A stretch of 54,087 bases of DNA. Origin: Psammoneis japonica (lineage: Eukaryota). A program made the translations under genes and the position numbers. The DNA lies in contig QPGO01000339.1 in assembly GCA_008632985.1 (NCBI GenBank), positions 1-54,087 on the forward strand, written 5' to 3'. This document shows, piece by piece, positions 7,890-54,087 of the stretch (positions are counted from its first letter, which is position 1; every line of letters begins with the position of its first letter). The notes beneath the pieces are model-generated. The model did no database searches and had not been told where the DNA came from. It worked only from the letters and a program-made list of their open reading frames with translations.

Positions 7890-8149
7890 TACCGGGGTAG
7901 AAGATCGACCTGCTTGCTCGTGCGTGAGCGAGCGGCTTGATACCTGTTGACGTCATTGTGACGCAGAAAAGCAATGACGTCAATCGTAACGCAACCTTGC
8001 TTGCTTTTCAAACACCTAAACCGCAAAACCGCTGAATGATTCATCCTTCGTGACATAGGGCTACACTGTGATGTGCTGCTCTCTACTCTAGCTCTAGAGT
8101 ACGCCATTACTCCTTACCCTGACCAGTTCTGTAGAAACAGATTGCAGCC

Positions 8150-11540: not shown

Positions 11541-14500
11541 ATGGAGGCCCTTGCCTTACAGCTCTGCTCGGGCAGATTGGATGCAGCATCATCGGCAGAA
11601 CGAGCAAAATTGGTACAAGAAGCGTCTCAGCTTGTCATTGACGACCCAGACGCAAGACGCGATCTTTCAGCGTTGGACGGTGAGTAGTCGTCGACGTAGA
11701 ATCTGTACTGATGTCTACGTTGAAACGCGCGGCTTTTTTTGTGCTCACAAATTTCGCTTGTCGCCCACAAAATTATTTTCTTGGCTTTCTTCAGATGTTT
11801 CATGTACTTCGCTGCATTGTTACAAAAGAACCACAAAGCTTTATTGTTTAGCCTTGTCATCTTCTCTAGACGAGGAGGAATCTGCTGTTGCAAAACTTTG
11901 TCAGGGCCTATGTAGACTGCTCGGCAAATCACAGAATGCGTCTCTAGTGGAAGCATGCAGCAAGTCCTTATCTGGGGCACCCTCTGCACTAAACTCGGCA
12001 CTGTTTAACGTGGCATCCGAAGGAGATGAAGTGTCATTTGCTCCTGCGCTAGCTTTAGGATCAGCACTTGATGACTCGAGACGAGATGAATGGGTCAAGA
12101 TTTTCCTCAAACGCTGTCTCTCTAGTTCTTTTGCTACCGCCACTCAAATCGCCCTCTTGGGACTATTTGTTTCGAGTATTAATCAAGAAGAATTCAATAA
12201 GATTGTATCCGTTATGGGTTTAAAGTTGAAGGCAAATCCAGAAAAAGCGCTTGAAACGGTGAATGCTATTTTTGAAGGACTACCTCGGAGTATTGATGTT
12301 GAAGAAGCCTTGGAGGGAGAGGTTCAGTTGCTGGCAACGATTATGAAACAACTAAAGTCAACAAAGTCTCATGTCCGAGTATTGGCCCAAGGCGCGTTGA
12401 CTCGAATCGCGCTCGTAAACAAGTCGTCCAAGGCATTGAGCAAGATTGTAACAGCATTGGCCGAATCGCTAGCTTCCACTTTGCCACAGCCCGACCAAAG
12501 AATATGTGCCTACCTTGCCTTGAAAGACATTTCCAATGAGCTTGATATCGATACCAAGGTAGATACTGATGCTGTGACTGCGGTGGTTACAGGTGTTTCT
12601 ACTGCACTTGGTAAGGAGAGCAAAACTGCGGGCGCAACTGCGCGTACCGATGGCTTGGATGCGTTCCTTCGGTGGATGGTAGTGGCCAAGAGAAGCAGTG
12701 CTACCAAGGGATACGAAACTGGGTTGGAGTTTCTGAGAAAACCTGTAATAAAGGCCAATGCGACTGACGTTGTTTTCTTCTTGGGGGCGATGGTACAACA
12801 AGTGAATCCCGACATCTTGGCATCAATTGCACTGGACCTTCATAAGGATCCCAAGTTTGAAAAAGGATTACAAAGTATTGTCGAGTCCTCTGCAAAGAAG
12901 CATAGCACTTCTACGGTGGTGCCACCTGTGGAAGGATTGATTGCGGTTTATCTTGCATTGGTTCATGCATTTGCGTCCTCATCGCTCGAGTTGAAGCCAG
13001 TATTCTCAAAGGCGTTGTCAGCCGGATCTCTGTCTCGTTCCAAAACCTCATTTGTCTACGGCAAGGCTATGACAGATGCCGTTTCCAAGAATGCAATTGT
13101 CAGTCAGATGCTTTCTCGGGTCATTGCGCTCTACACAAAACTACTGGCAAAGGCTGACGGGAAATCTACGGCGTTGGTTGGATTGCTAGAGGGTAGCCAA
13201 ACGGATGTCACGGCGGCCACTCATTCTCTCGCTGCTTGTATTGGCCATCCCTCGACTGACAAAGAGCGCCCGGCAACTTTAGCAGTTCTATCGTCGGTTC
13301 AAACTGTGTTGACATATGAGCCACTTGCAGCAGACGGACTAGTGGAAGCCCTCATCAGCCTGGTGAATGACGCGTCACTGGCGCACGAGGCGCTAGCATC
13401 GTCCTTGAACGAAACGAGAGAAGCCCGAGAATCGTTTTCTCCGATTATTGAATCTTATACCAAGCTTCCAATCAAGGGACAATGTAGTGCAACAGCATCG
13501 CACTTTGGACTTGACCCGAACGCAGTGCGACGAGCGGCTCTGCTGGTGGCCTCGCGTGCATCAAACATGCAGTTCGTAGCAAAAGCATTGGTTTTGACTC
13601 ATGTTGGTTCAACGTTGAAAGGCATTGGAAAGCAGCGAAGTTCGTTGGTATCTAGTACGTTGCAATTGATTCGGGAAGTCATCTTACCATCGATAGGCAA
13701 AGCAGAGGCCCGAGAGGCGATGATGTCTCACGTGGCAGATTTTGTATCAAACTGCGCGTGTTCCTACTACATGAAGGATGAAACAAACGTGGAATCTGGG
13801 AATTCTCACGCTGCCGTAAGCGTCGCATTACACCAGGGAGCCCTTAGTCTTATCACAACTCTTGGTGGCATTGCAAGCAACTTTGACCCTGAGTATGACG
13901 ATCCCGACGATGAAGATTTGAAGCCGTTTGTGCTTGCTCGATCGTTGTGTACTGCAGAGTTTTCGTCACAATTTACTTTCAACCTGAAGGTGGCTCTCAA
14001 GGATGTGGAGGCTATTACGGAGAAGGAAATCGACCTATACCGAAGTTCATCGTTGGTTCCATATTATGAGGGAGGTGAAACGACTGAGAAGGACAGTTCA
14101 TCGGACAGAATCCTGAATGCAGACAAGAAAAGGGCCGGTGGCAAGAGCCGAAGAAACAAGGGCGATTTTGGATCTGGGTTCGAAGACGAAGAGTGGGAGA
14201 GACAAATGAAAAAGGAGCTCGCGGCGAAAAAGAAGAAGGAGAATACCGTGGCAGGCGGCGCAGCAGAAAAAGCTTTGTCTCCCGAAGACAAGAAGCTCGT
14301 TAAAGAGCAGAATGCGGAACGAAAACGACTTGACGTAATTCTGGGCGGAAGTTATTCCAGAGTGTTGTCGGCTATCCAGTGCCTCTGCTTGTCCGACATT
14401 GAAGTCGGCAACACCTGTCTACCAATACTGAGCGAAGCCGTCATGGAATGCGCGTTATCGGATTCCCCAGCCCTTCGAATCTTAACGAAGCTCAAAGATA

Positions 14501-17500
14501 AGAGCCTCCAGACCCTGTCAACTTTGGCATCCTGTGTTTACGAGATAGACGAGGTTCATGCGCCAACAATAGCACGAGCGCTTATAGTTGGCTGCAATCG
14601 TAAGGAGAGAATAGTGGTTTCGGCCCTACCTTCCCCATGCCCATCGGCTGCGTGTGTGATGTATGAGATGGAGGAGTTCGACGACAAGCTTTCAGGACCT
14701 TCATTTTTCTTCCTTTTTCCTATAGTGCGGGCATCGTTGACGGGGCCACGTACCCCTCCAGGGTGCGAATCAGCTCTTCGAATACTCAGTCGACACACAA
14801 CAATGCTGAGCGGACCGGAGAAGGACCCGTCAGTGCTTAAACTGCGACGAGATATGGCGATCACCGTATTGGAGTTAATGTCGCACGACCGGTCACAAAC
14901 ATTCGTGGATCCGACCCCAACTGAAGTTCTCATTGCATGTTTCACCACAGACGCTGCGGATGAGTCTAGCTCTCAGCCTCTGAACACCGCGGAACTTGCG
15001 CCTCTGCTAGATGAGCGTGGTGCACTAGGAACCAAAAATTGTCGTGTCGGATCGATGCTTGTGCTAGAAGCAATTGCTAGGGATCACCCAAAAGTCGTTA
15101 AGAATAATCCTCTGGTCGAGAACAGGGTTTGGACGAACTGCTTCGACGACAGAGAAAGTATCCGAAAGGCAGCGCGGAGCACGTGGCTAGTGGCAAATGG
15201 TCAGGATGTAGGGGAGTACGACGGTACAGATTCTGCGTTGCCTCCCCCGTCGCCGTTGTATGCTGTTCCTTTGTTGCCATTGTTCAGCCATTCCGAGCAA
15301 AGCATAGCTGACGCTGCAGCGAAGGCGTATGCATGTGCCATGGGAATGCATGCATCAAGTGTTGAAAGGAATATCAATAAGTTGTGCGTCACTTACATTG
15401 ATTCTTTCCCAACAGATTTTGGCGACCGACGTACGGATGCATCTTCATCTGTGCCGCAACCAAAACAACTCAAGTCAGCTCCCGCTCCAAAGAAGTCCGC
15501 GAAGATTTCCACTGGGTTGCCGAAAAAGAAGCCTCAAAAGAAGTCGGCTTTAGCCGTTGCCGGAATCGGGAAACCGCGGACAACCGCAAGATCAGGAACT
15601 AAGAAGCGGTCGGTGAATTCGGCCCTGCTCGCGCCTAAGAAGGAGCGTACCCTTGATCAAGAAGCTTTAGCGAGCCAATTCTTGACATCGGGGAAGAAGA
15701 CTGATGCCGAAAAAGACAGCACCGAAAAAGTAGCGGTTCGTCTTGGGGTACTACGGGCAATCACCGCACTTACCGAGAGCTCCGCGGAAATCGAATTGAA
15801 CATTGAGACTGTGAAGCTGCTTACTGGATTCTTGATGGCTTACGGCCTAGCGGACGGGGATAACGTGGTTCAAGGGACTGCTAGAAACGCACTGAGAGAT
15901 GTTGTCGCGTCGAACGGTGGCTCCGACGATGCCATAGCGTTCCTACTGCCACATCTGGAGACTACTTTGAATACCGGTGTAGCCGACGAAACCTGTCTTG
16001 GCGATCTGCCACGAGACAAAGTCCTGCGGGATGTGGCAGCTGCTGACCGTCGGAAGGAAGGGGCGGTTGTTGCATTAGGGTCTGTAGCGCTGCATCTTAA
16101 GGGAGAAGGAAGTGAAGGTAAAATCGACAGTACTGTCGACATGCTCATAGCTGCCCTGCGAACGCCGAGTGAAGGCGTACAGTCTAGTGTTGCGGCATGT
16201 CTCGCCAAGCTGATGAAGAAGGGTCGCACTCAGGATCGGGTCGAAGAGCTGTTGTCTGCTCTAATGAAAGAATGTTTGCACGGCGATACTCTCGCTCTTC
16301 GAAGAGGTTCGGCGTACGGGATCTCTGCGGTCGTTAAAGGTAGCGGCATTGCGAGCCTCAAGAAATACGAAATTGTGAAACAGCTCGAGGAGGCGTGTTC
16401 TTCCGGTTCCACTAGTGCGAAGGAGGGAGCCTTGTTTGCGATTGAGTTACTGAGTGATCGACTCGGATTGCTCTTCGAGCCTTATGTTATTGTCCTTCTT
16501 CCAGCCTTGCTCAAAGCGTTCAGCGACAGTAGCGACCACGTTCGAAGTGCTGCTTCTCAAACAGCGGGTTTGATTATGAGCAAGTTGTCAGCCCACGGAG
16601 TCAAACTTGTTATGCCTGCTGTGCTTACAGCTTTTAACGATCCAGCTTGGCGAACAAAACAAGCGTCAATTCATATGCTGGGTAGTATGAGCCATATGGC
16701 ACCGAAACAACTAGCGAGTGCCCTGCCGAAAGTTGTTCCTAAGTTGACCGAGGCATTCAGTGACACTCACCCAAAGGTCAAGGCAAGCGCTGAAGAGGCG
16801 TTGGGAGAGATCAGCAAGGTCATAAAGAACCCTGAAATCTCATCAATTAGTCCTGTGCTTCTGAAAGCTTTGACCGACCCGTCAGATGGCACAGTGAAAG
16901 CGCTGGAGGCTCTCATTGAAACCGAATTTCTACATGCGATTGACGCTCCCAGTCTTGCACTTATCGTGCCAGTCTTGCACCGGGGACTACGAGATCGTGG
17001 TGCAAAGACAAAGCGATACGGGGCTCTCATTTCAGGGAATATTTGCACAATGATTGACGATCCCCGTGATTTCGTTCCCTACCTACCAATCTTGATTCCG
17101 GACTTAAAAGCTGTTCTTCTCGATCCCATACCAGACGTTAGGAGCACGTCAGCAAAAGCTCTTGGATCGTTGACCCGGGGACTGGGAGAGGATACGCTTT
17201 CCGACCTTAGACCTTGGCTCATTGAGACTTTGAGATCAGAGAACATTAGCTCTGCAGAGCGAAGTGGCGCTGGTCAGGGTCTTACTGAAGTATTGATTGC
17301 AGGAGGAGCTTCAGTGGTCGAAGAAGTGATGCTCGAGGAAATTTTGCCTCTGAGGAGTCACCCTCAAGCAAGCACTCGAGAGGGTGTACTCTGGGTTCTC
17401 ACATTCCTCCCATCCTCTCTCGGCCAGGCTTTCACCCCTCTTATCGACCCGTCGTTACCGGCATTGTTGGCAGGTTTGTCCGACGACAGTGAACCCGTTC

Positions 17501-20500
17501 GCGATGTTGCCATGCGAGCCGGTCGTGTTTTGATTCGAAGCCACGGCAAGGCCCATGTGGACAAGATTCTCCCGAGCTTGGAAGACGGCTTGGGTGATGA
17601 AGACTACCGAATTAGAGTTGCCTCTCTCACTCTGCTTGGCGATCTCCTGTCCATGATTGGAGGGACTACAGTCGTTAAAGGCGACGGAGATACCCAGGAT
17701 GATATTCGCAAGGCTGAACGAGCCCAGGCGCAGATTGCACTTGTTCTCGGAAACGAGACAAGAAAGAGGGTGCTGAGCGGATTGTATTTAGCTCGCTGCG
17801 ACACTGCAGCCGTTGTGCGTCAGAGTGCTGTTCAAGTGTGGAAAACTGTTGTCAGCGTCACCGCTCGCGCGCTCCGGGAAATTCTACCGGTTCTGGTTGG
17901 GCAAGTTGTTACAGCGCTCGCAAGTGGGCATCCAGAGAAAACGCAAGTCGCGGGGCGTTGCCTTGGCGATATAACTTTCAAACTTGGAGAATCGGTACTT
18001 CCCGAGATCATTCCCGTACTCCGAGATGCTTTGTACAATGGCGACGAGCACACGAGACGTGGTGTGTGCGTTGGATTATCTGAGGTTATCACCGGATCTT
18101 CAAAAGAAAACATCCTTCGCTTCTCCGAAATTATTGTGAAGGTTGTGAAAGATGCGCTTTGTGACGACGATGAAGGAGTGCGGGAGATGGCTGCATCATG
18201 TTTCCAAAGCCTCTACTCTGTCATCGGGAATAAGGCCATGGAAGAGATCGTCCCTTTGTTGCTGGTTGCACTTGAGGAAGATGATACAGGCGATGGTACT
18301 CGTGTTCGCGCGCTAAACGGTCTGACTGGAATCCTCAGTGTTCGAAGCAGGGAACTGCTACCTTACATCATTCCAAGGTTGATCAAGAGGCCTATTCCAA
18401 AGAATCACGCCGATGCACTTTCGAGCATAGCGTCTGTGACAGGTGGAACGATCCACATGCACTTCAACACCATCCTTCCTGCTATGATTGGGGAGCTCAG
18501 TGACATGTGCGGTGAAGAGCTCGACGAAGAAGAGCGTGAGCGTGAAGCAGCTATTCGAACGTGCTGTAGGTCACTCTGTAGCAACGTTGACGAAGGAGGT
18601 GTCAATTGGTTGGTCGGCGAAATAGCGGCGAAATGCGGTAGTGATAAGGACGAAGTGAGAATAGAGAGCTGCTGGATGCTTCAAGTTGTCGTGGAGGAGC
18701 GTAAGTGTCATGATGAAATTATCGATTCACGTGTTTGCTGTTTCGGATGATCGACAAAACTCGATTTCCCTATTGAGGCGTCAACCATATCATGATGTCC
18801 ATGAGGGGTTCTACAAATGAGATTTCTGCCTGACGAGAAGATGCAGTCTGTTGCGTATTTCTAGATGTCCGTCGAATCCTCTCACGCTTGTGAACTCTAC
18901 TTTTCATTGCGTACAGGTAAAGAGCAGCAAGATTTTTATGAGCAAATTCCAGTAATTTTGAGGGAATTGATCTATCGTTTTAATGACGATGTCCCGGCGG
19001 TCGTCAAGTCTGCCAACACAGCGTTTGGTGCTTTGTCCAAGAATGTTCCAGCAGAGGAGCTTGTAAAGCACATTGAATTTATCCGAAATCTTATCAACAG
19101 CATGGTTAGTGACGCGAGACGAAGGAAAGGCGGTGTCGGCGACGGCGAATTTCTACTCCCAGGCTTTAACATTCCAAAAGGTAAGAATGAATGGTTGGTT
19201 CATGCTCAAGGTGGCCGCAGCTTGTGCAACAACGTGATGACCAATTTTACTACGGTTTCCGACACCAGAATGGAGAAACATGATTAGTCTTTCTGATTGA
19301 GCACCATGCTTTTTTTGGCTTCGCTCCCCTTGTGTTTGATGAGTGTTTCTCGCGATCACTTATACTGCTTCGCGTTTTACTTTTGTTTTCAGGCTTGGAG
19401 CCTCTGTTACCCATATATCAACGCGGCATCCTTTACGGTAATGCAACAATCCGAGAGGCTTCTGCTGCTGGTCTAGGAGAATTGATCGCCCTCACGGATA
19501 GCAAATATTTGGCAGGACCTCTCATTATCAAAATGACGGGCCCGCTGTTACGTATTGTTGGAGATCGTAATCCACCAGAAGTCAAGATCGCCATCTTGAA
19601 AACACTTGGACAAATTCTGGTCAAGGGAGGTCCAGCTCTTCGCGCTTTTGTACCGCAGTTCCAAACCACCTTTGTCAAGGCTCTGTCTGATCCAGCTCGT
19701 CAAGTCCGCGTGGAAGCCATTCAAGCGCTGGCGTTGTTGATGCCCCTGTCGACGCGGGTTGATCCACTAGTCAAAGAACTCGTTTCTGGGTCACTCGGAA
19801 AGAGCAGCAGCGGTACAGGCGAAACTGCCGGGGTGGCTGCCGTGCAAACTGCAACGCTTGAGGCCCTCGCGGTGGTGCTAAAAGCGGGTGGGAAGAAAGT
19901 CAAACTACCAACTAGCATCCCCTCTGCGTTGGATGCAAGTAAGGAGCTCTTTTGCCACGAAGACGAGGGTGTGAGAGAAAGTGCTGCCAAAGTCATGGGC
20001 GCGGCTTGTGAGTTGTTGGACGTCGGTATTACGAATGACTTGATTCGAGACGAAATCCTCAAAGGCAAGGACGACCCTAGCGAGGTGCGTCACGGAAAGG
20101 CGTGTGCGTGCCGCCGAATTCTCGCTTCTTCTGCCGGGTCGAATATTGACGACAACGTCAGAGTTGACATGACGAAACTCATTGAATCATACATGAAGGA
20201 TGATAACAGCTCAGTGAAGGAGGCTGCTTTTGTCGCAATTGGTGCAGCAGTTGGATGTGCTCCAGATCCCAGTGCCGCTCTCCGAAAAGAGGAGCCCACA
20301 CTCTTGGATACAATGCAGGATACCCAGCAAAAAATGGACGTTCACCGTGCTTTGGCAAAAGGACTCTGCTCGGCCGTTCGACTTGCCGGTGGCGACGGTG
20401 TTGCGTTCCTCGGCAAGGCCCTTCTGGACGCATGTTTACAGATGGCAATGAGTGGTGCACAGCGCATTCAGTTCGCATACAACGATGTCTTGTGGCTGGC

Positions 20501-20630
20501 GCTTGATGTGGCCAATGGTGAATCAGGACTTGAAGCGTACGTTGAAATGGCTAATTTTGACAATTCGAAAGCAATGAAATCACTCTACACAAAGGTGTTG
20601 ACCCGTATCAAGCAAGTAGACGACGATTAG
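11541..20630 (+). CDS. GCN1: Translational activator GCN1 (HEAT-repeat eIF2-alpha kinase activator), 4 exons
   Basis: Conserved GCN1 segments FEPYVIVLLPALL, SAHGVKLVMP, WRTKQAS, DAPSLALIVP, ERSGAGQGLTEV and ITGPL-like MTGPLLRIVGDR. In-frame exons 11541-11679, 11870-18700, 18917-19180, 19393-20630. Confidence 0.95.
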
Positions 20631-32488: not shown

Positions 32489-33956
32489 TGTTTGATGGGT
32501 TTTCTTCCTTCGGAATGCTGATGGTTGATGGGTGATGGGTGTGTGTGACACATCTGTCGTTGGCAGATGATTTTCAAAACGAACACACGAAAAGATATAT
32601 TGATTTTTATTCATATCTGAAGCGTTTAATAATTCTTTTCTATCGGCCTTGAAGCACGAAGATAGAGGGGGTAGCCGTTTGTGTCCTTATCCGAAGATTC
32701 CATCTGACTGGGTGTGTGCGCACCGCTGCGGTTCTCCGCATTGTCCTTGTTGGTGTCTACGATGCCATGTCCTCATCCCATCTAATCTTCCTTGTTGTTT
32801 TGAGTCCATGAGAGCCACACCAAACATGCTCAGAACCATTACATTGCACGTTTTTCTTGTTCCCTCTTTTGGAAGGTGCAATGGCATGCCAGCTCTTCCA
32901 CCCACAGAGACACAGAGAAGCCACCCTGATTGAACAAAATCATGCCCCCCCAACAACAACGGCGGCAGAGCTTGCCAGCTCTTGTCAAATCCAGCGCACA
33001 GCAGGCTGAGACTTTCCAATGCAACAGAATCATTTCAAGCATTTGTTGGGACAGGTGACAATGACGTTGACAAGATTGGTGTCATGCACGCGCGGCTTCA
33101 GCAAGCAACGGCGGTGTGTGCGGTGAGCAAGAAACCTCTCTCCATGAGATGGCTGTCGCTCTCAGCAAAAAGTCAAAGGGGAGAACCACAGCAGTGGCAT
33201 TGACATCTGCTGGGAGTTGTGTGAGACACAGCTCAGGGCATGTGCACAGGCAGTGATGTGCTGCATCACAACACTGCAATGCACCGGCCTTGAAAGCTGA
33301 CAAAAATGACAGCCAAAGCTTGCAGCACCAAGGCGAGGGCCAAGATGGCATCAAACAACAAGGCAAGGCAAGCTCCATGAGAGCAAACAAAGCAGCTGCT
33401 TCATCAGAGGCCGCAACACAGTGTTGTTCACTTTCCTTTGGAAAATTTGGAACATTCACTTTGACAATTGTGTGCAAAAATTAGCGATGGTTCATTTGTT
33501 TTTTGATGGTCAATTTACATTTGTTGTCACCGTTTTATGTTGGCAATTGTTGCCGTTTTATTTTGCTTTTAAGTCACCAAAGAATTTCAACAAGCCCTTC
33601 ATTGTTGAACAACGCTTTTTGTTTTGATTAATTTTTCACATGTTTGTGGAATCGTCAACTTTGACAGTGCTTTTCAACAGCTTCACCGCAGCCTTGCGTC
33701 ACCACAGACAATGGTGTTTCTCCCTCGCCCCAGTCGGCCACGCAATTACCCAGAGGAACACTGTCTCATCATTTCCACCTGCACGCTCCAGTTGTCCAGT
33801 CAATGGGCCCCCACCTGCATTTTGGCACCTTTTCTACATGCGCAGTTCTCTGCCCATTTCACAACAGCACGCCCTCTCCCCAAAATGCTTTTGACGAGAG
33901 GGTGTGCTGTTGTGAATCCTGTGCATTCTACGTGAATCGGCAACTGACTGTTGGCC

Positions 33957-36900
33957 ATGGCGTCTGACGACTTTACCCCGTCTGACGACGAGGTCGACCC
34001 TGACCCTTCTTTCCAAATTACCGAGGACTTAAATTTTGATGAAACAGAACATTTCACCAACGGTTTGGGATTCGAATTGTTCCAACCCAAGCTCAAAAGC
34101 ACAATTGCAACGCGTGCCTCGAAAAAGAAGTTTTTGGAGTCGACGAATTGGACCCCCTCTCCAGAATTCCTCGCTCTTCCCTTCCTTTGTCACAAGCCGA
34201 AGTTGCGCCGTGTTCCTCATGTTGCCGAAGTTATCCGCACCAACACATTGTAAGGAAAACCCTTGGCTATCCCGACATTTGGTCCTGCATCATGACTCGT
34301 GGTTGGTCCATTGAGAAATCCCGCCGTGCGAAAGGCGAATGTGTCCTGTGACACAAAAATCTCAAGGAGGCTCTGCATTTCTCCAAAATGTCCGGAGAGA
34401 CAGAAAAAGAACAGCACAACCGTGTGCTTCTTCACCACAACATCCAGGCGATGGTAGAATTTGTTTGTACGATCATTGCCGGAGACAACCTGAACGATCC
34501 TTTATCCGGCAAGCCTTGTTTCCAATTTTTGCGGTGCAAAAGTCTCCAAAGTTTGATCAACGATCGAGCCCAAGACCTCCACAGTGCCTTTTTGTCACTG
34601 ACATCGTCATGCGTTACGTTCAGTGCAAGCCCAAGGACATGGACCATTGGTTCTTGAAGATTTTCCGTCACGTCAAAACCCAAAAGGAATGGCGCCTCTT
34701 TGTCAACAGCTTTCTGGTTGTGTGCGACACTGACGATCCTGGTGCCCAGGCGGATGAGATCAAGGGGTTCCTTGACGACTCAACCGGTGACACAAAGAAC
34801 ACGGTGACAATGCAAGGCGATTCCCTTGCACGCCGTGAGGCTCATGAAGAAAAAATCAATTCCATGTTGAATCACGAATTTGGGAAGCGTTGTCCCAAGG
34901 AGCAAATTGGCATCCGACCTGGGTGCAGCAAGCAGCTCACAATGCTCCGTTGCAGAATGCGTGATCAGAGGGCCGACTGCTTGGAAGACGACAACAAACG
35001 AATCTACAACTCTAAAACCAAACGCAAAATTGGGAGGACCCGCAAGGATGGCACCTGTTTGTACGATGGTGAGAACCCCCCCCACCTCCCGCCTTCTACC
35101 TTTCTGCCTGCATCTGTCGTCTCAATGTCTCTTCTCACACCCCATGATTGTTCACGACCCACCAGAGCCTTCCTTGACCGTTCCCAACAAGAAGGCCAAG
35201 CCTGCATCTGCAAAAACAAGCCCCTCCATCGCTTTCTGGCAATGTTCCGTCGTCTAGGGAGGCGCACCGGACTCTCACCGCCGACCTTCCGTCACTCTCA
35301 GAAATCATGGAAAACCTAAAACCCACTTCTACCTCCAAAGGTCCTTCGTCCAAACCTCATTCCTCTCCTCCTTCTGTTTCAGCTAATCCTCCCGCGGTTA
35401 CGTCTCCTCCTGGTGACCCCAACGACATGTCGTGGCTGGACCTGTCCACACTCCGCGATCGCTTTGACCCGTCCAAGTGTCGACCCGTCACCACCGAGGA
35501 AGTTTCTTCTCATTTGTCACACCTGCACATCATTGACAAAGCCACCGACACTGATCGGGTGCTTCATCATTCTGCCGCCGACTTTTGCCTGGCGGACAAC
35601 TTGCGGGAAAACTGGCACACGTTCTCAAACAATGCGCCATTGTGTGATTCCGCCACCGCATCTCGTGTTCGAACCGAGCACCCTCCTGACCTCGATCACT
35701 TCTCCGAGGAACTCTCCGTCGCCCGTCAGGCTAACTCTCTGTACAAGGGGCACTTCGGGTGCCTTTGTGCATGCATTCCCACCCTTCTTCCATTTATTTT
35801 GTTGAAGGGAGAGTCCGATTTGACACGTGACGGACCGGTTGCAGTTCAAAACGGCGAAGCACGCAGGACAAAGTTCGGTTGTGCTGGGAGAGCGCATCAC
35901 CCCAAGATGCCTGGTTCTGCCAAACTGGCTAAACCAAAGGCTGCTTACGGACTTGATGTCTTTGAGTTTGATGATAACTTTGACGCCAACGAGACCTCCA
36001 AAATCAAGGCGATGGCAGCCGACATCCTTGACTCGATTCAGCTTTGCGAAAATGAGGTAGAGCTGAAAAAACTGAGCAATCCACCACCATTTAACTGGTC
36101 ACTTCGGTGCGAGGAATGCTCGCAAAAGTTGGGCAACGAAATGGGCTGTCTCTTCTTCAAACGTGAGGACGTCACCATGCAGGGATTGTGCATTTCCCGG
36201 GGTCAAGTCTGTGATGGTCACTGTGACAATAAAAACTGCACCTGGCGTCGATGCAGGAAGACAGCTGCCGGTTGCTTCTTTGTTGTGGATGCCTTTGGCG
36301 ACATCTGGTCCTTCAAGGTTGTTGCCAACAGCAGAAGGACCATTGGTGAATGCTGCGACGACCAGTGCGACATGAAGCCTGTGCTTGCTCGCATGCACCA
36401 CAATCGAGCTCAGCTTGATTTTGCACTTAAAGACTTGGACTTGCAGCACGATGGTCCCACCCACCCCGATGTGTCGCTTTCCAGCATTACATTCAAGCAT
36501 CTTTCCCTTGACGACAACAGGCCGTGGGACAATGTTCTTGTTGGTGGAGGTGGCGACTCTTCACATGTCGAGGTGTGCATGGATCGACTCAAGTTCCCGA
36601 CTTTCCCAGTCAGGGACTTCCACTCATCTGCCCCAGTCACAGTGATCTGCCGTTTCAAGAACATTGTGTGCCGATCGGGTCCCAACCCAAAACGAGTCAT
36701 TCATTTGGCGATCCATGCTGGTTGTCCCACCGGATGTCACCGATTTTACTGCGTGGGGGACAAGTGTCTTCCCAACCTTTGTTGCGAAGGTGCTGACCCA
36801 TTTGTCAACTTTGCCGATTGCTTGCAGAACACATTTGGGGTGCTGTGCGGTGACCCACAGGTGGGTGGGATCAGCCCTGCCAATTTGACGTACAAAGAAA

Positions 36901-38920
36901 TTTTGCGATGTATTTCTAGACCCTTGTTGCGTCGGAACCGCGAATGACCCAATTGACGCAATGGTGGAAGAAATCTATGCTGCACTTCTCTGGATAAACA
37001 ACAATGTTGACACCAACGAGTTCTGTCCCAACTTAATGGAACAATGGTGCAAGGCAGCGTGTGATGCTTGGGCAGACCGGGGAGCAGATTTCAGTGAGAT
37101 TCGTCTCATGTTGGTGCTGCAATGTCTGGTGCTGGCAGGTGTCGCAGTGAAAGACCATCCAAGACTCAATGACATTGTCTGTCCTGTCTTCAATTCGGGA
37201 GCTGCCGCACAACTGGGGCACATTCAACCGGAAGAAAGGCCGCTCATGCACCAAAGGACATCATCCGAAACAGGAACCGAAGAGCACGGTTGGAACGGAA
37301 CCGAGCACAAACTTTGTGAGAATTCAGACAATCGCTGCACCCACACATTTTTGATTGTGTTTTCCGAGGACCCTGTTCAGGACAAGACCTGTTTACCTTC
37401 TCTCCCTCTGGGCAGCGTCTCCACAAGCCACATGGGCCAACCGAGTGTGAAATTTTGGAGTGTGTTGACGACGACCCCAACCTTTGCCAATCACAAGACA
37501 ATGCTGAATCGCGCACATTTGTGTGTGAATCAGCCATGCAATCAGACGGCACCAGTGTTTTCTCTGCTGTTGATGGACTGCCCGCGGACAATGAACTTAG
37601 CTCATTGTCATCAGAGGAGTCTAGACTTGCCGCAAACAATGAACTTAGCTCATTGTCTTTGGAGGATTGTCGATTTGACGCGGAGAAAGAACCAAGTTCA
37701 TTGGATTCGGAGGAGTCTCGACTTGCCGCAGACAATGAACTCAGCTCATTGTCTTTTGAGGAGTCTGTGTTGTCGGAGGACTGCTCGTGTCCTGATTCTG
37801 ACTGCCGCGTTCCAATTGTCACGGCAGATTCTGTTGTCCTTCAGTCGCAGGATCAAGAATCCGATGAAGATGATGCAAGTGACGCAACCGCGTGCGATCG
37901 ACCCAAGCCACCGGTCCTTTTACAAGCACAAGATTTTGACATGGACAAACATGTGAATGCTGTTTTTGAGCAGGTCTGTCAACAGCCGAAGAACTCCTGC
38001 AATTGTTTGGTGTCATGTTTTTCACAAATCTCAACCCGCAACATGACTCCTCCTGTGCTTTTGTTTCACATCATCATGTCATCCCCAGACAAGACGGAGG
38101 TGCAAATGTCCTGTGGCTTTGCATGACGAGGCCCGTCATGGCCGGAAACCTGACGTTGGATGAGACATGTTCGGACCGTGGTGTGGAGGCCATCTGATCC
38201 ACTCAGCAAAGAAGAGATGAGGCAAGGTGTCAAGTCGTTCAGGATCTCCACACGAACTCAAATGTTCGTGCATGCACTGTGTCCCCACAGGATGGTGGCC
38301 CCGCTTGTCACTTGAATTGCAACACATCCGCCAAGAATTTTGCCCAAAGGGTCAAGACGCGGTTTGGAACAGTGATTGATTTTAAGAAAAGTGGCTTTGT
38401 TCAGATCTGCATGGACCACCACTGGATGCAAAAAGGGGAGTGGCTGCAGTCGACACTCGGAAATCGCTTCTTTGGCGAAAACCCAAGGGATGTGATGGAA
38501 ACGTTGTTTCATCCAAAGCTCCAGAGGTGCCGCATCACAATCCCATGCACCATTTGGTCACTGGCCCAAACCGTGTGCAATTTGGACAACATTTTGGAAT
38601 GCGCACTGGTGCAGGCCATGACACAGGACATGGCATGTGAAGTGGTGACGCTCCACCAGGCTTCCCAGGAGATTGTGGAGGAGCACTGTGTGGATTGGCT
38701 GGGGAAACCATCTGACCAGGAAGCATTGCATTTGGGAGTCACGGAACAGGAAATTCGGGAAATGCTGCCACATGAAGAAGCCAATTCAGTCCCAGAGTTC
38801 CCACGAGAGTGTGGAAATTACAACCCGAAGGAACTGTTCCCGCTCCTGTCCTTCGAGAGGAGAATTCCCGATTTCAGGGATGAGTCAAGGAAATGGCTCA
38901 GGAGTTGTTTGCCACACTAG
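33957..38920 (+). pseudogene. Long disrupted ORF(s) of unknown function inside the TpA-depleted block
   Basis: Chain of same-strand, protein-like ORF pieces from ATG 33957 (MASDDFTPSDD) through 35307-36947 (546 aa, 4 Tyr), 36961-37956, 37455-38126 and 38279-38920, broken by frameshifts and TGA stops. Confidence 0.5.
37587..37766 (+). repeat. 48-bp tandem repeat, ~3.7 copies (DNELSSLSxEESRLAA)
   Basis: Units start at 37587, 37635, 37683 and 37731, e.g. gacaatgaacttagctcattgtcatcagaggagtctagacttgccgca. Confidence 0.9.
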
Positions 38921-39341
38921 TTCCCAGTCGGATTTGTGAGCAGATTGTTGAAGCAGGTGAGTGAACGTTGTCTCTGTTGTCCTTGTCGTCCCAATTAAGT
39001 TTTCTGCTGCTGTTGTTGGATGCTCACATGCTTTTCACCTGCTTTTGTGAAACAGCTCTCCCCATGTGTTTCTACGGTCTTGAACTGCCCAAACATGCTT
39101 TGTCCCATCATGTGTCTCAGCAATGATGTTTCACAATGATGTTTTGAACAAAATGCTTTTGCAAGCAATTTACACTGTGGAAGTGGATTTCGAAATTGCA
39201 GCAAAAGAGAGGTTTGAACTGGAATTCGCAATGATTCAAAATTTTCACAAGATCACAAGGAGTGGTAAAATGGACAAATCATGTGTGCATTGAAAGATTT
39301 GGCCAATTCTCAATTATGTTGCATTTGAGAAAAAGGAACCA

Positions 39342-40660
39342 TTGATGGCAACTGTGAGATTTTTGGCATTAAAGAGAGGTTTGAAAATTTTCCAACGGCA
39401 AAAATGGCTGGGACACAAGGCATGGAGCCACCCACAATTGGCGACAATGGCAAGGAAGAAGAAGAAAGGAACTGCAGGGGTGGCTGGAGATCAACCAACA
39501 AGCCCAAGGCCAGCCGCAGCATTGGTGCGGGTGGGAGCCACTGGGGATCACCAGTCTGTGAAGAGAGAGGCAGAAGAGGTGGCGCGGAAGGAACTTTTCC
39601 CAAAGGCAAAATTCCTTGTCAAGGTGGACATGGCAAGCAGTGGCAAAGTGTCGCGGCTCATCAGGAAAAAGACAGCCGGAGGAAATTGCAGCAAGCGAGA
39701 CTGGGTGGGAGCGTGGGAAGACTGGGCAAAGAAGTGCGTCATGTGTGCAATTAACGCGAAAAGGAGCACGGTCACTCAGGCGATCACAAGAACAATGCAA
39801 CGGCTGGCAAGTGTTTTGTGGTGCATGGCATGTTGAGTGTAGTTGTGCTTGACACAACTGCACCTTTGTTTGTTGAAGTCGTGTTGACAGAGAATGAAGC
39901 AGAGGAGGTGCACAGTCAGAAGCCGGCAGCAAAGGGTGGAGGTGGGAAGAAGAGCAAGAAGAGGAAGAAGAACGATCGTGCGGAAGAGGAAGAGCCGTTC
40001 CTGGCGACTTGGGGGGAGGAGACTGTGACAACGATTGTGGAGGACAAGCGCAAGAACAAGGAAGCACATGCTTGGTTCTATGAAAACATCCTGAAATTCA
40101 CAAAGAGCACCACCACATGGAGAAGGAAGGTGGAGTCGGGTGAGACAAAGGCAGCCGGTCTGGCTACAGCGAGCGACGAGGCTCTGGCACTGTTGACATT
40201 GGAAAACCACTGGAAGAGTTGGGAGCACAAGGCACATCATGACAAGACTGTTGCAGCAAGGGGGGGTTCGGACGAAGAAGATGAGGAAGAGTTGGAACCA
40301 ACACCCAAGTGCACGGACCCGTCAAGGCAACGAGACTCGTGGAAAGATGCAGGGATCAAGCGATTCAACGAACTGCTTGCGGCAGCAAAGAAAGACAGGT
40401 TGAGTGAGGAGGGCATGCAGTTCGACACATGGTGCAGCAAAGGCAAGAAAAGGAAGAGTGACGAAAGAGGCAAGGGATCAAAAAGAAAGAAAAAGCAGGT
40501 GGAGGAGGCAAGAACACAGGCAACGATGGAGCTTTCAAGTGACGACGAGGAGAAGGAGGAAGAGGCAACGGACGAGAACAGAGGATGCAAGGACAGCAAC
40601 AAAGGGGAGGAGGACAGTGATGTGGAAAGCGACACGAATGTAGATGCAGATGGTGAGTGA
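39342..40660 (+). pseudogene. Transposon-associated-type acidic/basic protein remnant
   Basis: Motif string ATASDEALALLTLENHW...PKCT...SWKDAGIKRFNEL with charged low-complexity tails. 1 Tyr in the 280-aa ORF. It resembles a repeated diatom ORF family I recall with ENYW and PKYT at these positions (not verified). Confidence 0.5.
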
Positions 40661-42086
40661 GCTGTGGCATGAAAAGGCAGCGGAGGCTTTTGTCAGTGTG
40701 ATGATGGAAAGAGAACAAGCAATGTGGCAGGCTTCAATGTCAACAGTTGTGAGGTTTAACAAAGCATTGGAGGGATCATTGTTTTGTGATCTAACCTTTT
40801 GTTTGACAACCAGTGTGTGCAATGGAACCAGCGCATGCAACAGAAGGTTCTCTTGACCAATGTAACTCAATGATTGGCGCCAAATTGTTGTCAACCAAAA
40901 CATTGTGAACATTGCTTTCAAAAGGTAAAAAGTGGCGGAATTCTGACAGTTGGGGGAGGGGTCCCACAGGCAAAGGAGGGGTCCCATGGTGAAAAATGTA
41001 ATGCTGTGATGTGCAATAAAAAATCACGTTCTACACAACTCACTCAATGTGAAACTGTTGCATTTGCACCTGCAACACAGTGTTGAAAATTGCCTGTGAG
41101 AAGGGTGGTCAGGATCACTGTGTTTCGCGCTCTGATGTTGCAACAGCAACAGCTGCAAATGACGTGTTTCTCTGTGTGCACCACAAATGCTGGGGGAAAT
41201 TTGGAAGCAACCCGGTGCTTTTTTGTCATGTTTTTTGCAAAGAGCAGCAGCAACAAGCAAAACCCAGCTCGCCCACTCTCTCTGCCACCGCCTGACTGCT
41301 GGCACTCTTGTGTTGTGCTTCAATGATGCAACAGTGTTGTGGTTTGACAACGCAAGTTTACAAAAGAGCATTGGGCAGCATGAGATTCTTGTTTTGTTGG
41401 CGCGTGCAGCAGTCGTGGTGACGCCCGAGCTGGCCAGGCAGGCACTTTTTTCTCTGTGCTGGTCACTGGGGATGGGGGTGACCATGATGGCAGGGGGACA
41501 TTTGTTGTTGACCCCTCATCTTGTGAATGGTGCCAGCTTTCCTTTGCCTCACTTTTCGAACAGCAAACTTTCCTTTGCTTCCTGAGCAATTTCAAAAATG
41601 AAAAAGCAATGTTGTGGCGTGGGTGTGACCGCATTCGCATTCTGACAGCATTGTGCGAAAGTTGAGTTGGATCCTCGTCATCGTGCACATTGCAAATATA
41701 CAATGATGGGAGAGTAGATAAGGCATCTATGACCAAAGAGATGTCTGAAACTTTCTAAGGCATTTATCAACAGGTCATTATGTCTAAATTTTCAGTTGCT
41801 TTTCCATGTGTGACATTTCTGAAAGTCATGTGACCTTCACGTTTATGCCCTCGCGTGATGGTCAGTGTCCGCAACATCGAGCAATGGCATTTTGCATCTG
41901 ACTGTCTCATCCACCACGCAAACCACGTTGAACTCCTGCTGCCAGCACATTCATTGCTCATCCACCACTTTGCAACACTTCCTGTCCGGTTCTTTCCGAC
42001 TCATACTGTTCCATATTGCACGAAAGCAGAGCGATTGAAAGCGCGGATCGTAGTCCCAAGGTCTCTTTGCCATCAAGTTTGTCAAG

Positions 42087-49969: not shown

Positions 49970-50200
49970 AGCTCAAATGCCCATCGCGAAAACCTGCTTG
50001 TGTCCAAGAAGTTCGAATTACTATCAGTTTTATAACATAAGAAATAAACGGTTTGTCGCTAATTACAACGATCAACGGCTTGTTGCCCGCCAATTGTATC
50101 GGTTTTGTCGCTTAAAACTATAAATCTATTTTTTGTGCCGTAAAACATTATTTAGTGTATTAATAGTATTTTCAAGTACAGTACATCTAATAATGTAATA

Positions 50201-50560
50201 TGGGGACATAAGAATGATTTTAGCCAGTGGCTAAAATTTTGTGTAGACACATACCAGGTTTGTACGCTGGTATATTTTCTACACAGAAAATATTTACTTT
50301 CCATTTTACAGATACTATAAATGTCATATCTGTTACGGTTTGCTGCTAACTATAACGTTCGTTAATATAAAACATTCAGCTTTTAAGCGTTTAAAAATAA
50401 ATACAAAAACAAAAAACTACAAATAATAGTACATATGTATATAAAAGAAAACAATGGGGTGGCGTTAAAAGGCGTTATCATTTTAAATATATCGCATACC
50501 AGGAGAAATGCGTAGAATTCTACAGGAGGTTTTTAGCCACTGGCTAAATTTTTATTCGGT
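50201..50560. mobile_element. Second copy of the MITE, inverted relative to 7528-7889, with the last ~8 bp of the right TIR missing
   Basis: TA|tggggacataagaatgattttagccagtggctaaaattttgtgtagacacataccagg... aligns along its length to the reverse complement of 7528-7889. It ends ...ggctaaatttttattcggta without tgtcccca. Confidence 0.9.
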
Positions 50561-51494
50561 AACCTTGAAATAAGGTACAAAACTACACGACATACAGAAA
50601 TGTCTCGTTCGCACCCACACATCATCCTTTGACTTCTTTGCAATTCACCACCCTTGCGATCCGTTCTGTCACCTGCCTCTGGTCAACACATGTGTGGCAA
50701 TTCCAATTTTTGCATTTGTCACATCCATTCTCTGCGCATTGTGCACGCTGTTTGAGTTTTTTTTTGTCTGGCCTCACAAGCAGTCCCGCTGTCTCCTTTT
50801 TTGGTGTCTGGGTTTGGCGGGCCAAAGAAGAGCCATCTGGTGCAGTTTTGCAGACCAGTGCAGGCATGATTTTTTGGCAGTTCGCACAGCCACCATTGTG
50901 ACTTTTGGCCATGATGCTCCTGTCATTGTGGTGACAGTTCTTCCCCTGTCTTCCACCGCGCTGTCCTTCCTGCCGACCGCAGCCGACAGAGCCCTCCCTG
51001 GTTGCTTTCTCTGCTGTGGCACAGCAGGGGCAGGGGCAAGAAAGTGAAAAAGTGGATGTTTTGCACACAGCCACAGATTTTGCACAGTTGAAAACTCAGA
51101 AATGAGCTCACGAAACCAGAACAATGTCTCTTTCGCTGGCACGTGTTTTGCACCATCAGAGCTTGCATTGCAGTGATCCAGACCACCTTTCTCATGGTCA
51201 TTTTTTTAATCTGTTGCAGCACAAAATTTTGCTGTTTCAAACCTTGATGGTCATGCAGCTGGCAACAACATGTCAACTGTGACAGATGAACATTTTTGTG
51301 CTGTGGGATCAGACCCCCCCTGCCTCCCCATCAGGAAAACATGCTTCGCTGTGAAACAGGGACATGTTTTCCCTGTGAGAGTGCCCACCCTCTGTCCCTG
51401 CAAAACCTGTAAATTGGAATCATTTGTGTTGCACCACAAACATTCCATTTTGTTATTTGCATTTAAATCAAATGACGCTGATGGAGACAACACC

Positions 51495-52020
51495 CCAGAG
51501 TTTGCAGCAGCAGCTGCAGCTCGCTTTCTTTTGAAGTGCCGCTGCTGGCAGCCACCTTGTTCATTGCCAAAAAAGTGCAGGGTGCATTGTGAGAGCACAA
51601 TGAGGATGAACTGACACTGCCAACAGGAACAGCACAACATGGGCTTGCTGGTGCATCATCCAGTGCTGCTGATTCTGGAGCAGGCGAGTTTGTAGCATGA
51701 GCTGCTGTTGCATGATTTGAAGTGCCGCTGCTCCACTCCACCTCATTCATTGCCAAAAAGAGCAGAACACGTTGTGAGAGCACAACACAGATGAACCAAC
51801 ACAACCCACAGGAATGGCAACATGGACTTGCCAGTGCATCCAACGATGCTGATTCTGGAGCAGGTGAGTTTGCAGCAGAAGTGCTGTTGCTCTGATCCAC
51901 CTCATTCATTGCCGAAAAGCACAGAGCACATTGTGAGAGTGCAACATGGATGAACTAACATGAACGGCAACACACACTTGCCGGTGCATTGGTGCATCTG
52001 GCATTGCTGATTCCGGAGCA
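51495..52020. repeat. Degenerate tandem repeat, ~3 units of ~160-186 bp
   Basis: Recurring ttcattgcc(a/g)aaaa...ttgtgagag...gatgaac...gctgatt(c/t)ggagca; anchors near 51560, 51746 and 51905. Confidence 0.85.
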
Positions 52021-52128
52021 ATGTAGACACCGGTGTGCGGTGCAAGACATCAAGCACCCAGCTCCACCCCCCTGCAACTCAAAGAAAACACAGAAAGAAA
52101 GCATGTGAGCAAGCAAAAAACATCTTAA

Positions 52129-52690
52129 GTGCCACAGAACGAACTTGCTGGAATGGCCATGAGAACAAGCACCACCTGCATGTGCACCACACTGTGCAAG
52201 GCACTGCATGAACAACAAAGTCATGTGGAAATGACTGGGTTCACCCTGCACCTCCCATGCTGTGGATGGTTCATCGATGACATGTTTAGAGCATGGACCA
52301 GAAACAGTGGAGAGACTTGGCAAGCCTTTAAAAATGAGCTTGACAACTCAGGCAACCTCCAATGGGTTGCCTCCCCACTCTCTGCCTCTGCAGTTTTTCT
52401 GGATCTGGACAAAAATTGGAAAAGACAGATGTGATGCAAGTGAATGCATCAAAAACCAATGAAGCTCTTTTTGTGCATGCCTTTTTCGAAGAGTGTCACA
52501 TGTGGCAAAGAACTTTTCATGCGTGTGATTCTGAGAGCTGCAGGAACAAGCACCGCCTGCAGTCTTTCTGGATCTGGGTGTGTGGAAATTGGAGAAGACG
52601 GGTGCATTGTCAGCAAATGCATCAAAAACCAATGAACCTCTTTTTGCACATGCCTTGTTTGAAGAGTGTCATTTGTGGCAACTTGTGATG
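52129..52690 (+). mobile_element. Decayed Penelope-like retroelement reverse transcriptase fragment with a duplicated C-terminal piece
   Basis: GMAMRTSTTCMCTTLC (GxAMG..Y..LY), CCGWFIDDMF (YY.RFIDD; FIDD at 52270-52281), AVFLDL, and HQKPM(K/N)LFL(C/H)MP twice, matching the PLE thumb motif YQKPxNLxLYIP. Confidence 0.8.
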
Positions 52691-52914
52691 ATTTTGGATG
52701 CAAAACTCTGACATGTGCGATTGTGCCAACACTGTAGAAAAGTGAGCTTGTGACGTGCATGCACACAAGAACGACATGCGCCAGCAGCTCAGCATTCTGG
52801 ATGCGGCAGATTCATGACAGCACACTCGCGATCACAAAACTCAAGCGGTGCCTGAATCAAAACCTGTCTTGACCAACCAGAAGGACAGCAGGTTTCACCA
52901 TGCATTGAGCTGCT

Positions 52915-53110
52915 GTCATCGGCCAGTGGGGTGAAGTTTTTTACCACCACCATGGCTGGTTGTTGATTTGCAGATTTGCAACCAAATGTGGAATCCACAT
53001 GAATCATGACAGCACACACTCTCACTTTTTGACTTTTGGGGAGAGGGTGCACCATTGTGAAGCATGCAGAAAATTGTGCATGTGAAAAAAATGCTGAAAA
53101 TGCCATGGAC
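52915..53110 (-). repeat. Diverged inverted homolog of 33810-33990 (upstream region plus start of the long ORF)
   Basis: HAQFSACFTMVHPLPK..CAV..VDST..AM..NFTPLADD here versus HAQFSAHFTTARPLPK..CAV..VHST..AM..DFTPSDD at 33838-33990. Confidence 0.8.
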
Positions 53111-54087
53111 CAAGGGGCTGCAAAAATCTGGGAAGCATGGAGAGGAGTTGAAAGTGGAGGGTGGGTCATGGTGTGCATGAAGCAGACTGCACACGTGCAA
53201 ACACACGCATGTGAGTTGAGGAGGGCCAAAGTGGAAGCCAAGTTCAAATTGATGACCATCAAAAGGAAACCAAACTGTGCATCACAAAATGCAGATGTCA
53301 ATCCCAACCAAATTGAGCATTGCGCACATTTGATTGAAGCTTGTGCAAGAAAAGCTGATGAGACATCAGACCAAATGCAAAAAACAACTGCAATTTGTTG
53401 AGCACTGTTGCCGGCAGTTTTCAAATTTTGCTTGTTAACAATTTTGACAAGGCACATCAAAAAATTTACAAAGGGAAGTGGAAACCACTGCATTGGGGCA
53501 TCTGATGACACTGACAAGACCTGCCATGCTGCAGCACACATTCAGATTCTCCAATGCACTGGGCACCTTTGGCACTGACAACAAAACTTCCATTTGGTCT
53601 TGCCCAACTTTGGCAGATGGCTGCAGATTTTTGTGGTTGCCAACTTGGGAAGAGATGAACCATGCTGGAGCCCAAAGGCCAAGATGCAGGGGTGAGGAGG
53701 TGATGTCCAGCCAAGATGCAGTGAGTTGCACGTGGGAGCGATGATGCCAACAGCTCTTGCTCTTTGTCCAATGAGGCACCAGCTGAACAGTGGGCAGAAA
53801 AGGTGGCACCTGGGCACAATGGCCAAGGAGGATGCTGCTGCTCTGCCAAAAACTGCAGCAAGAGTCACAAAAGGAGCTTTGTTTCTTCTCAACAGACCAA
53901 GTTCTAAGAGCATCAACATTGCCAATTATTTTGGACATGGTGGTGAACCAAGTTGTGGAGTGGGCAATGTGAAATGGTGCAAATTTGTCTTGGAGAGTGA
54001 GCAGATGATGACACTGGCTTCCCCAATGTTGCTCTGTGTAACTTCAAAGGCTGGAACAAAGACAGACTTGAAAATTTTTCAACGTTC

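Follow-up and report, generated by a model that had tools for sequence, protein, structure and literature searches.

TpA-depleted blocks and tyrosine loss in the relic of a probable Penelope-like reverse transcriptase of the alga Psammoneis japonica

We analysed positions 1 to 54,087 (forward strand) of contig QPGO01000339.1 from the Psammoneis japonica assembly GCA_008632985.1; this whole stretch is called the window. At its right end, the relic of a reverse transcriptase (RT) gene lies next to a non-coding tandem repeat in a block, B2 (50594-54087, running off the window end), in which the dinucleotide TpA is nearly absent. A second such block, B1 (32841-41696), contains an unrelated open reading frame (ORF). 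An original prediction, made from the sequence alone, had proposed that a Penelope-like RT remnant at this place records the direction in which it was mutated, one ancestral Tyr having become Cys in one tandem copy and His in the other. The relic, both blocks and the relatives of both coding regions point to a transition process that acts on DNA and converts TpA to TpG or CpA.

Results

The reverse transcriptase relic and its tandem copies

A profile of 12 relatives of at least 400 aa, used with hmmsearch against the six-frame translation of the window, recovered three colinear pieces of the relic, all on the forward strand. Segment 1 (52144-52485, frame +0) matches profile positions 343-455 with E 1.7e-24; it carries the motifs GTAMG..., RFIDD, FLDL and YQKPxNLxLYIP and is interrupted by two in-frame TGA stops. 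Segment 2 (52614-52844, frame +2; profile positions 441-522, E 6.6e-7) corresponds to the thumb/C-terminal region, has in-frame stops and lacks about eight residues (PxSAHPPG). Segment 3 (52769-52909, frame +1; profile positions 560-606 of 610) is the probable C-terminal end; its match is weak alone (E 0.32) but colinear with the preceding segments, and what was ...AYSRPKN... now reads ...AHSRSQN.... By this profile search the remnant spans 52144 to about 52909, so that the extent first given for it, 52129-52690, was too short. Judged from its sequence, it is the dead, 5'-truncated 3' half of an RT gene; TGA stops and two frameshifts interrupt it, and it has undergone a short deletion and a 170-bp internal tandem duplication.

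The duplication produced copy A (52388-52508) and copy B (52557-52681, with a frameshift within the copy), both on the forward strand. Blastn self-comparison and alignment confirmed these two copies, which had been predicted, at 79% identity over 125 nt; Tandem Repeats Finder gave no rows for 50000-54087, the copies being too diverged for it, but blastn did recover them. The letters on which the prediction rested read back identically: 52471-52482 is TTG TGC ATG CCT (LCMP) and 52644-52655 is TTG CAC ATG CCT (LHMP). The codon at profile column 452, ancestrally Tyr as described below, is thus TGC in copy A (52474-52476) and CAC in copy B (52647-52649). The 101-aa ORF at 52129-52434 contains no Tyr on re-reading, as had been noticed, and Tyr is equally absent from all 229 translated residues of the three relic pieces.

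Composition and edges of the two blocks

Dinucleotide observed/expected (o/e) ratios were tabulated in 500-nt windows. In B2, TA o/e is 0.03-0.12, CG o/e 0.06-0.43 and TG/CA o/e 1.4-2.6; only 17 TA dinucleotides remain in 50700-54087, where TG (395) and CA (382) are nearly equal in number. In B1, TA o/e is 0.03-0.35, and TG (846) and CA (837) are again balanced. TA density in B1 is 9.2/kb versus 37.8/kb in genic DNA, and CG density 39.7/kb versus 57.7/kb; CpG o/e is 0.6-0.9, a mild depletion only. TG/CA o/e reaches 2.6 across B1 and B2, and the remaining dinucleotides are near expectation; in particular, the AA, AT, GA and CA steps show no depletion. GC content within the blocks is 0.44-0.51, and TpA o/e in neighbouring genes is 0.5-0.7.

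The edges of the blocks are sharp. To the left of B2, one TA is met per ~10 nt as far as 50593, and the next comes only at 51207; the spacer at 50000-50593 is AT-rich (GC 0.30-0.36), has a TA o/e of about 1.0 and abuts B2 without a transition zone. B1 is TA-free between 32840 and 33482, and TAs are dense again from 41697. The signature first attributed to one relic is therefore real, but it is a property of two kilobase-scale blocks and broader than had been claimed. Some repeat material is common to both blocks, as indicated by inverted similarities between 33817-33931 and 52988-53103 (71%, 116 nt) and between 41086-41143 and 51148-51205 (78%, 58 nt).

The TAs that survive stand mostly in TTAA, TTAC/GTAA and TTAT/ATAA; ATAT and GTAT/ATAC are almost gone. 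This suggests a rough order of 3' neighbours T>C>G>>A for T-A-N, measured against a genic baseline rather than against the true ancestors.

GC-biased gene conversion was considered as a source of this composition and rejected, as AA/TT and AT steps are undepleted and CpG falls. Another explanation is that TA was never abundant here, either because selection avoided it (through a TA- or TTAA-cutting nuclease or TA-targeting transposons) or because the DNA is of foreign composition, with no decay involved. A 589-aa frame that is still open in B1 would agree with this, except that long frames open on both strands are to be expected anyway where TAA and TAG are lacking. We consider such avoidance very unlikely: stops, frameshifts and a deletion disrupt the relic, residues invariant in its family have been destroyed, its tandem copies differ at the same site, its relatives are not TA-poor, and TTAA itself is the best-surviving context.

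Direction of change at tyrosine codons

The codon TAY contains an obligatory TA, so conserved tyrosines record the direction of any change by which TpA was lost. Relatives were sought with the 101-aa ORF. Phmmer against 1.84 billion representatives gave 76 matches at E<=1e-3, of which 65 were single-stretch, covering residues 5-94 at ~40% identity; the best were P0003 (2.9e-12) and P0004 (1.3e-10). The other 11 were multi-stretch and were set aside as spurious, the two that were scanned being beta-propeller/LRR (leucine-rich repeat) proteins. Residues 50-90 of the ORF recurrently attract SBBP repeat proteins (beta-propellers) as spurious matches, which could mislead automated annotation. When homologues of the 101-aa relic were sought by shared words among proteins of 55-177 aa, there were zero candidates and no closer relative. 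Five intact relatives then served as queries for a metagenome scan, in which 156 relatives were confirmed; 80 loci were retained, and 77 ORFs were aligned to the profile. Four Tyr-poor fragments (P0003, P0023, P0034 and P0073), possibly mutated themselves, had been excluded from the first consensus.

Column 452 is Tyr in 69 of 71 relatives, always encoded by TAC (48) or TAT (21); the other two have Phe, and none has Arg, Cys or His. Because the relatives have Tyr rather than Arg here, the TGC of copy A and the CAC of copy B descend from TAY and not from CGY. The proposed direction, Tyr to Cys in the one copy and Tyr to His in the other, thus holds; relatives with Cys, His or Arg at such sites, which the original prediction had named as evidence against itself, do not occur at this column.

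The same tendency is seen across the 16 columns at which Tyr is the commonest residue. There the relic has Cys or His at eight (360, 380, 443, 452, 469, 485, 578 and 604), Phe at three, other residues at five and Tyr at none, while the 1095 cells of the relatives in these columns include 3 Cys, 51 His and 16 Arg. Among the 12 columns with at least 40% Tyr, the relic has Cys or His at eight, against a background of 47 in 1549 cells of the 77 relatives (binomial p 3e-10). In columns with a consensus of at least 0.5, Tyr is retained in 0/11 cells and other residues in 61/117 (Fisher p 7e-4). With up to 61 proteins from the databases in place of the metagenome relatives, the outcome was alike, Cys or His standing at 10/16 columns and Tyr at none.

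Not every example first put forward is equally informative. The Tyr of LY(I)P (69/71) and the second Tyr of MY..LY (59/73) are well conserved. The others are conserved weakly: the Tyr of YQK (column 443) is Tyr in 37 and Phe in 34 of 72 relatives, and the two tyrosines of YY.RFIDD occur in 19/73 and 34/73. By column, these weaker examples include 356 (Trp 36, Tyr 33) and 379 (Phe 24, Leu 20, Tyr 19). Likewise, of the proposed ancestor ttg TAc aTA cct, the Tyr codon stands, but ATA was a guess, since relatives with Ile at this place use ATC (32) more than ATA (8) or ATT (6).

The 80 loci of the relatives have TA o/e ratios of 0.39-1.13, so the RT family is not natively TA-poor. Three of the Tyr-poor fragments, all from environmental assemblies, retain few or no tyrosines at the Tyr columns (P0034 0/6, P0073 0/6, P0003 3/10) and have Cys or His instead; decay of TA may be visible through them in other samples or organisms.

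CpG decay has also left its mark on the relic. The near-invariant residues T346 and A357 (each 73/73 in relatives) have become ATG and ACC, R382 (72/73) has become TGG, R499 (66/67) has become CAC, and T442 has also become ATG. As read from these codons together with those for Tyr, two processes are superimposed in the relic, decay of CpG and decay of TpA.

Could methylation-driven CpG decay account for everything, with the Cys and His codons derived from Arg (CGY)? Two copies of a CG could likewise end as TG and CA, B2 is strongly poor in CpG, and the changes at R382, R499 and T346/T442 are genuine CpG decay. This explanation nevertheless has almost no probability: column 452 lacks Arg altogether, Arg fills only 16 of the 1095 cells at Tyr-commonest columns, CpG decay cannot remove TpA, which sits at 3-12% of expectation, and B1 has lost TpA and Tyr with CpG still at 0.6-0.9. 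The argument that CpG decay is unable to explain the Tyr sites, part of the original prediction, is borne out.

Evidence for action in place from tandem copies and other copies of the family

Upstream of the RT relic, a ~185-bp tandem repeat is present in three diverged copies (51498-52020, forward strand; blastn self-matches of 70-71% identity). It is non-coding, and TA o/e in its 500-nt windows is 0.07-0.10. When its three copies are aligned, some columns hold TG, CA and CG, and others TG, CA and TA, so that the repeat catches both ancestors, CG and TA.

Tandem copies can also be compared for doubles, sites where one copy reads TG and its partner CA. The RT copies A and B have four (shuffle mean 0.53; four of 5000 shuffles reach this number), and the three pairs of 185-bp copies have 6, 8 and 5 (shuffle means 0.94, 1.5 and 1.0); over all four pairs, the observed number was attained in 0 to 9 of 5000 shuffles. 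Copies A and B share the derived codons CAT (column 443) and ATG (column 453) and differ at column 452 (TGC versus CAC), which indicates that the process acted both before and after the tandem duplication.

These comparisons also bear on unbiased neutral decay, in which a bias towards transitions and chance would suffice. A Tyr codon can yield only Cys or His by transition, and 22 transversions among the changed columns testify to ordinary divergence. The chance of this explanation is negligible given that Tyr is retained in 0/11 cells versus 61/117 for other residues, that TpA lies at 3-12% of expectation while other steps are near 1, that TG/CA doubles exceed those in shuffles and that the block edges are sharp.

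Among public sequencing runs, one DNA run contains half of the words sampled from the window and no RNA run is listed for them, which has no bearing on expression. Contigs of a public DNA run, possibly from the source sample and hence only partly independent, were compared with 50600-54087; a second run of that sample yielded no pieces there. Word depth is 49-60 in the flanks; across 51.1-53.5 kb it sums to 400-8457, in 884 contig pieces, a depth that is not a copy number. This high summed depth implies that the relic belongs to a multi-copy family. Forty listed differences from the run contigs comprise 13 between CG and TG/CA, five between TA and TG/CA, eight positions that form four TG/CA doubles, and 14 others. 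Where TA and TG/CA differ, the other copy keeps TA in three cases and the window in two.

Modified bases cause systematic miscalls in long reads, and an artefact of assembly or base calling might in principle mimic such changes. It is most improbable here. The run contigs, partly independent as they are, cover 30/30 bins, with 220 pieces at 99% identity or more; run pieces at 53074-53170 and 53420-53571 show no differences from the window; and miscalls would give neither frame-consistent replacement of Tyr by Cys or His nor different outcomes in the two tandem copies.

A further possibility is that the RNA of the element was edited from adenosine to inosine (A-to-I) before reverse transcription, by an ADAR-like enzyme or an ADAT-like one preferring U before A. 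ADAR and ADAT editing makes A read as G and favours sites at which U/T precedes the A, and the changes seen here are indeed A to G, after T/U, in a multi-copy retroelement. We regard this as unlikely. Editing of a transcript would place A-to-G changes on the transcribed strand only, and here A-to-G and T-to-C changes both occur on the sense strand, with TG about equal to CA (395 versus 382 in B2). Moreover, the adjacent tandem DNA copies differ (TGC versus CAC), and DNA outside the element is affected: the depletion is just as strong in the non-coding repeat, in the flank at single-copy depth and in an unrelated element at 10-20 kb distance. Finally, RNA hyper-editing is not known to be confined to one dinucleotide, and here AA, GA and CA steps are undepleted.

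A second, unrelated coding region in B1

The 589-aa open frame in B1 (35178-36947, forward strand) belongs to an unrelated family; it has no Pfam match. Its closest relative, P0093, is 53% identical (E 6e-118), and P0093 as query led to seven more (P0094-P0100). These relatives come from environmental assemblies and from one record source-named as the diatom Attheya.

Compared with P0093, the frame has Cys in place of Tyr at ten sites, His at two and Phe at two, and keeps Tyr at three; the reverse change is not seen. With five to eight relatives as outgroups, ten columns have a Tyr majority, and there the window has Cys at four, His at three, and Tyr, Phe and Ala at one each; the Cys/His columns include two with Tyr in 8/8 and 6/6 relatives. 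Tyr is retained at 1/10 sites versus 177/304 for other residues (p 0.003). On the evidence of these alignments, the second, unrelated element independently repeats the loss of Tyr. As CpG is only mildly low in B1 while Tyr and TpA are lost, the loss of TpA is not a by-product of CpG decay.

Either strand of B1 contains long open frames, which the exclusion of TAA and TAG would lead one to expect. A short tandem repeat lies at 37320-38126, where a NELSSLS-like motif recurs several times in the translation (both strands).

Assignment of the relic family

The relatives of the relic are single ORFs of ~650 aa with the motifs DKNLGP, GTAMGT, RFIDD, FLDL and YQKPMNLYLYIPPxSAHPPG. Profile searches were silent on them: Pfam, RVT_1 included, found nothing in the relic, the neighbouring open frames, 13 single-stretch relatives or one locus ORF, and a PDB profile search for the RT family, telomerase included, was empty. 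The nearest atlas clusters (score 0.98, a lead only) carry DUF8422, HTH_animal and RVT_1 and come mostly from rotifers, chordates and arthropods.

For Penelope-like elements (PLEs), the published description gives an N-terminal DKG motif and motifs N1-N3 as criteria, and a hammerhead ribozyme motif as present in canonical PLEs with (EN+) and without (EN-) an endonuclease (PMC8557442). In the relatives, DKNLGP stands by eye at the place expected for the DKG motif; the window relic, being 5'-truncated, does not include this region. As for the pseudo-LTR (long terminal repeat) or partial tandem arrangement of PLEs, terminal direct repeats or tandem units lie 3.9-5.5 kb apart in 5/6 of the relatives' contigs, although the assembling of tandem or circular forms could give the same picture; in the window copy, only the 170-bp internal duplication is present. 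Rfam gave no hammerhead match at E<=1 in window positions 50000-54087, where retention in a mutated copy is not to be expected, and none at E<=0.1 in the 14 of the relatives' 80 loci that were searched. Pfam recovered no GIY-YIG endonuclease domain, a feature of EN+ clades only, from the sequences scanned (13 single-stretch relatives, one locus ORF). The relatives' ORFs stop about 40 residues past the ...RPKNLRD... motif, which fits the EN- type, where an endonuclease is not required.

With EN- PLEs of the Athena/Coprina type the relatives share a single ~650-aa ORF, the lack of an endonuclease domain and, probably, RT core and thumb motifs; they differ in that no hammerhead was found and in the silence of the Pfam and PDB profile searches. 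EN- PLE clades adjoin telomeric repeats at chromosome ends. The window has no telomeric repeats, a search of TTAGGG type giving two matches (with two mismatches) versus 1.58 expected by chance and none in B2, and B2 runs off the window end. The Penelope-like label of the original prediction is thus reasonable in view of the motifs, the atlas clusters and the terminal repeats, but not fully proven; the relic family is probably an endonuclease-less PLE.

Intact relatives carry short tandem arrays (19-nt and 74-nt units) just 3' of the ORF, at L028:3982-4371 and L001:4331-4483, which recall the 185-bp array adjoining the window's relic.

Neighbouring genes

The window is otherwise a gene-dense eukaryotic stretch with a GCN1 homologue, pieces of ABC transporters, helicases and a short-chain dehydrogenase whose nearest atlas clusters are haptophyte and diatom. 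The GCN1-like gene appears as a 2446-aa frame (11410-18750) followed by a separate 448-aa frame with further GCN1 C-terminal HEAT repeats (19284-20630); probably the two form a single gene, split by an intron or a frame break.

Discussion

At these loci the ancestor was TA and the products are TG and CA; the change is symmetric between the strands, fills sharply bounded blocks and does not depend on CpG decay. The best explanation seems to be a transition process that acts on DNA, on both strands and after insertion, is aimed at repeat blocks and converts TpA to TpG or CpA. We give this reading a probability of roughly three in four. Two context-specific transition processes would then have been at work, both ending in TG/CA: the ordinary decay of CpG and a much less usual decay of TpA in which A:T changes to G:C only where A follows T. 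A Tyr codon changed from TAY to TGY (Cys) would reflect a change of the A on the top strand, and one changed from TAY to CAY (His) a change of the A on the bottom strand. Since TpA is self-complementary, a mark or an enzyme recognising it would strike both strands symmetrically.

Several points count against a reading of this kind. The relatives used for polarity are only 35-50% identical to the relic and come from other organisms, so single columns could reflect lineage differences, and in several of the Tyr columns Tyr is mixed with Phe or Trp. At the 41 changed columns with a consensus of at least 0.6, parsimony infers 10 changes of TA type, 9 of CG type, 10 other transitions and 22 transversions; a large ordinary divergence is mixed in, and the parsimony classifier was allowed to prefer ancestors that fit the context. 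The apparent neighbour preference has a genic baseline in place of true ancestors. The depletion extends into a flank at single-copy depth (TA o/e 0.03 at 50751-51250), which fits poorly with a strictly homology-triggered process. Finally, no enzyme, base modification or de novo event has been observed behind the TpA change.

The cause would be a mutator aimed at silenced or repeated DNA, for which there are two candidates. One is an enzyme that deaminates adenine in a T-A context; a T or U before the target is typical of TadA/ADAT-type deaminases. The other is a symmetric, miscoding modification of the palindromic TpA step. The deaminase and the modified base are inseparable here, and the chemistry of the process we can only infer. 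It is possible, and we put this forward tentatively, that TpA in silenced or repeated DNA of the alga is converted to TpG or CpA by a mutator that is heritable and works on DNA, or by an epigenetic mark that miscodes. Such an adenine-directed mirror image of fungal RIP (repeat-induced point mutation) and of 5-methylcytosine decay would call for either a deaminase specific for adenine in a T-A context of DNA or a symmetric modification of TpA, for instance N6-methyladenine or a modified thymine, that is kept in heterochromatin.

If the DNA-level process is real, repeat-directed hypermutation extends beyond fungi and beyond cytosine. An alga would then be purging its repeats of TpA, presumably by way of an enzyme or mark acting on adenine (or thymine) in duplex DNA, with a bearing on the biology of genome defence, on the debate about adenine methylation in eukaryotes and on a possible natural A-to-G activity on double-stranded DNA. 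The process would account for the escape of transposon relics in such genomes from Pfam and BLAST, and for long spurious open frames on both strands of TA-free DNA. A low TA o/e with an excess of TG/CA, together with Cys or His at conserved tyrosines, could serve as an annotation index for such blocks.

A literature search found no known symmetric TpA mark with a TG/CA outcome, and, in the part of the literature that it covered (subscription journals and supplements lay outside it), no account of repeats in diatoms or other algae being mutated from TpA to TpG/CpA. As a repeat-targeted, context-specific hypermutation, the TpA signature stands a reasonable chance of reflecting a new chemistry.

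Among known systems, repeat-induced point mutation (RIP) of ascomycetes resembles the process proposed here in being a heritable, DNA-level hypermutation of repeats that consists of transitions only, depends on dinucleotide context and affects both strands. It likewise leaves kilobase-scale, sharp-edged blocks with extreme dinucleotide indices in which transposon genes are destroyed. The direction is opposite. Fungal RIP turns C:G into T:A, chiefly in CpA, so that TpA is generated and GC reduced. Here the change is from A:T to G:C at TpA: TAY has become TGY or CAY, TpA is destroyed (0.03-0.12) rather than in excess, TG/CA stands at 1.4-2.6 and GC stays at 0.44-0.51. RIP is moreover fungal and the present host an alga. 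RIP also requires duplication and occurs in the sexual phase; the relic is multi-copy (summed depth 400-8457), but the depletion here is also found in flanking DNA at single-copy depth.

ADAR and ADAT act on RNA, and the evidence here is for DNA, with both strands affected, fixed loci and strict confinement to TpA. The decay of CpG at 5-methylcytosine is alike in that a self-complementary pyrimidine-purine step gives TG or CA, depending on the strand that is hit, and in B2 the two decays lie side by side. It is unlike in its target, which here is TA rather than CG, and in the base that changes, here A (or the T paired with it); in B1 the two are uncoupled.

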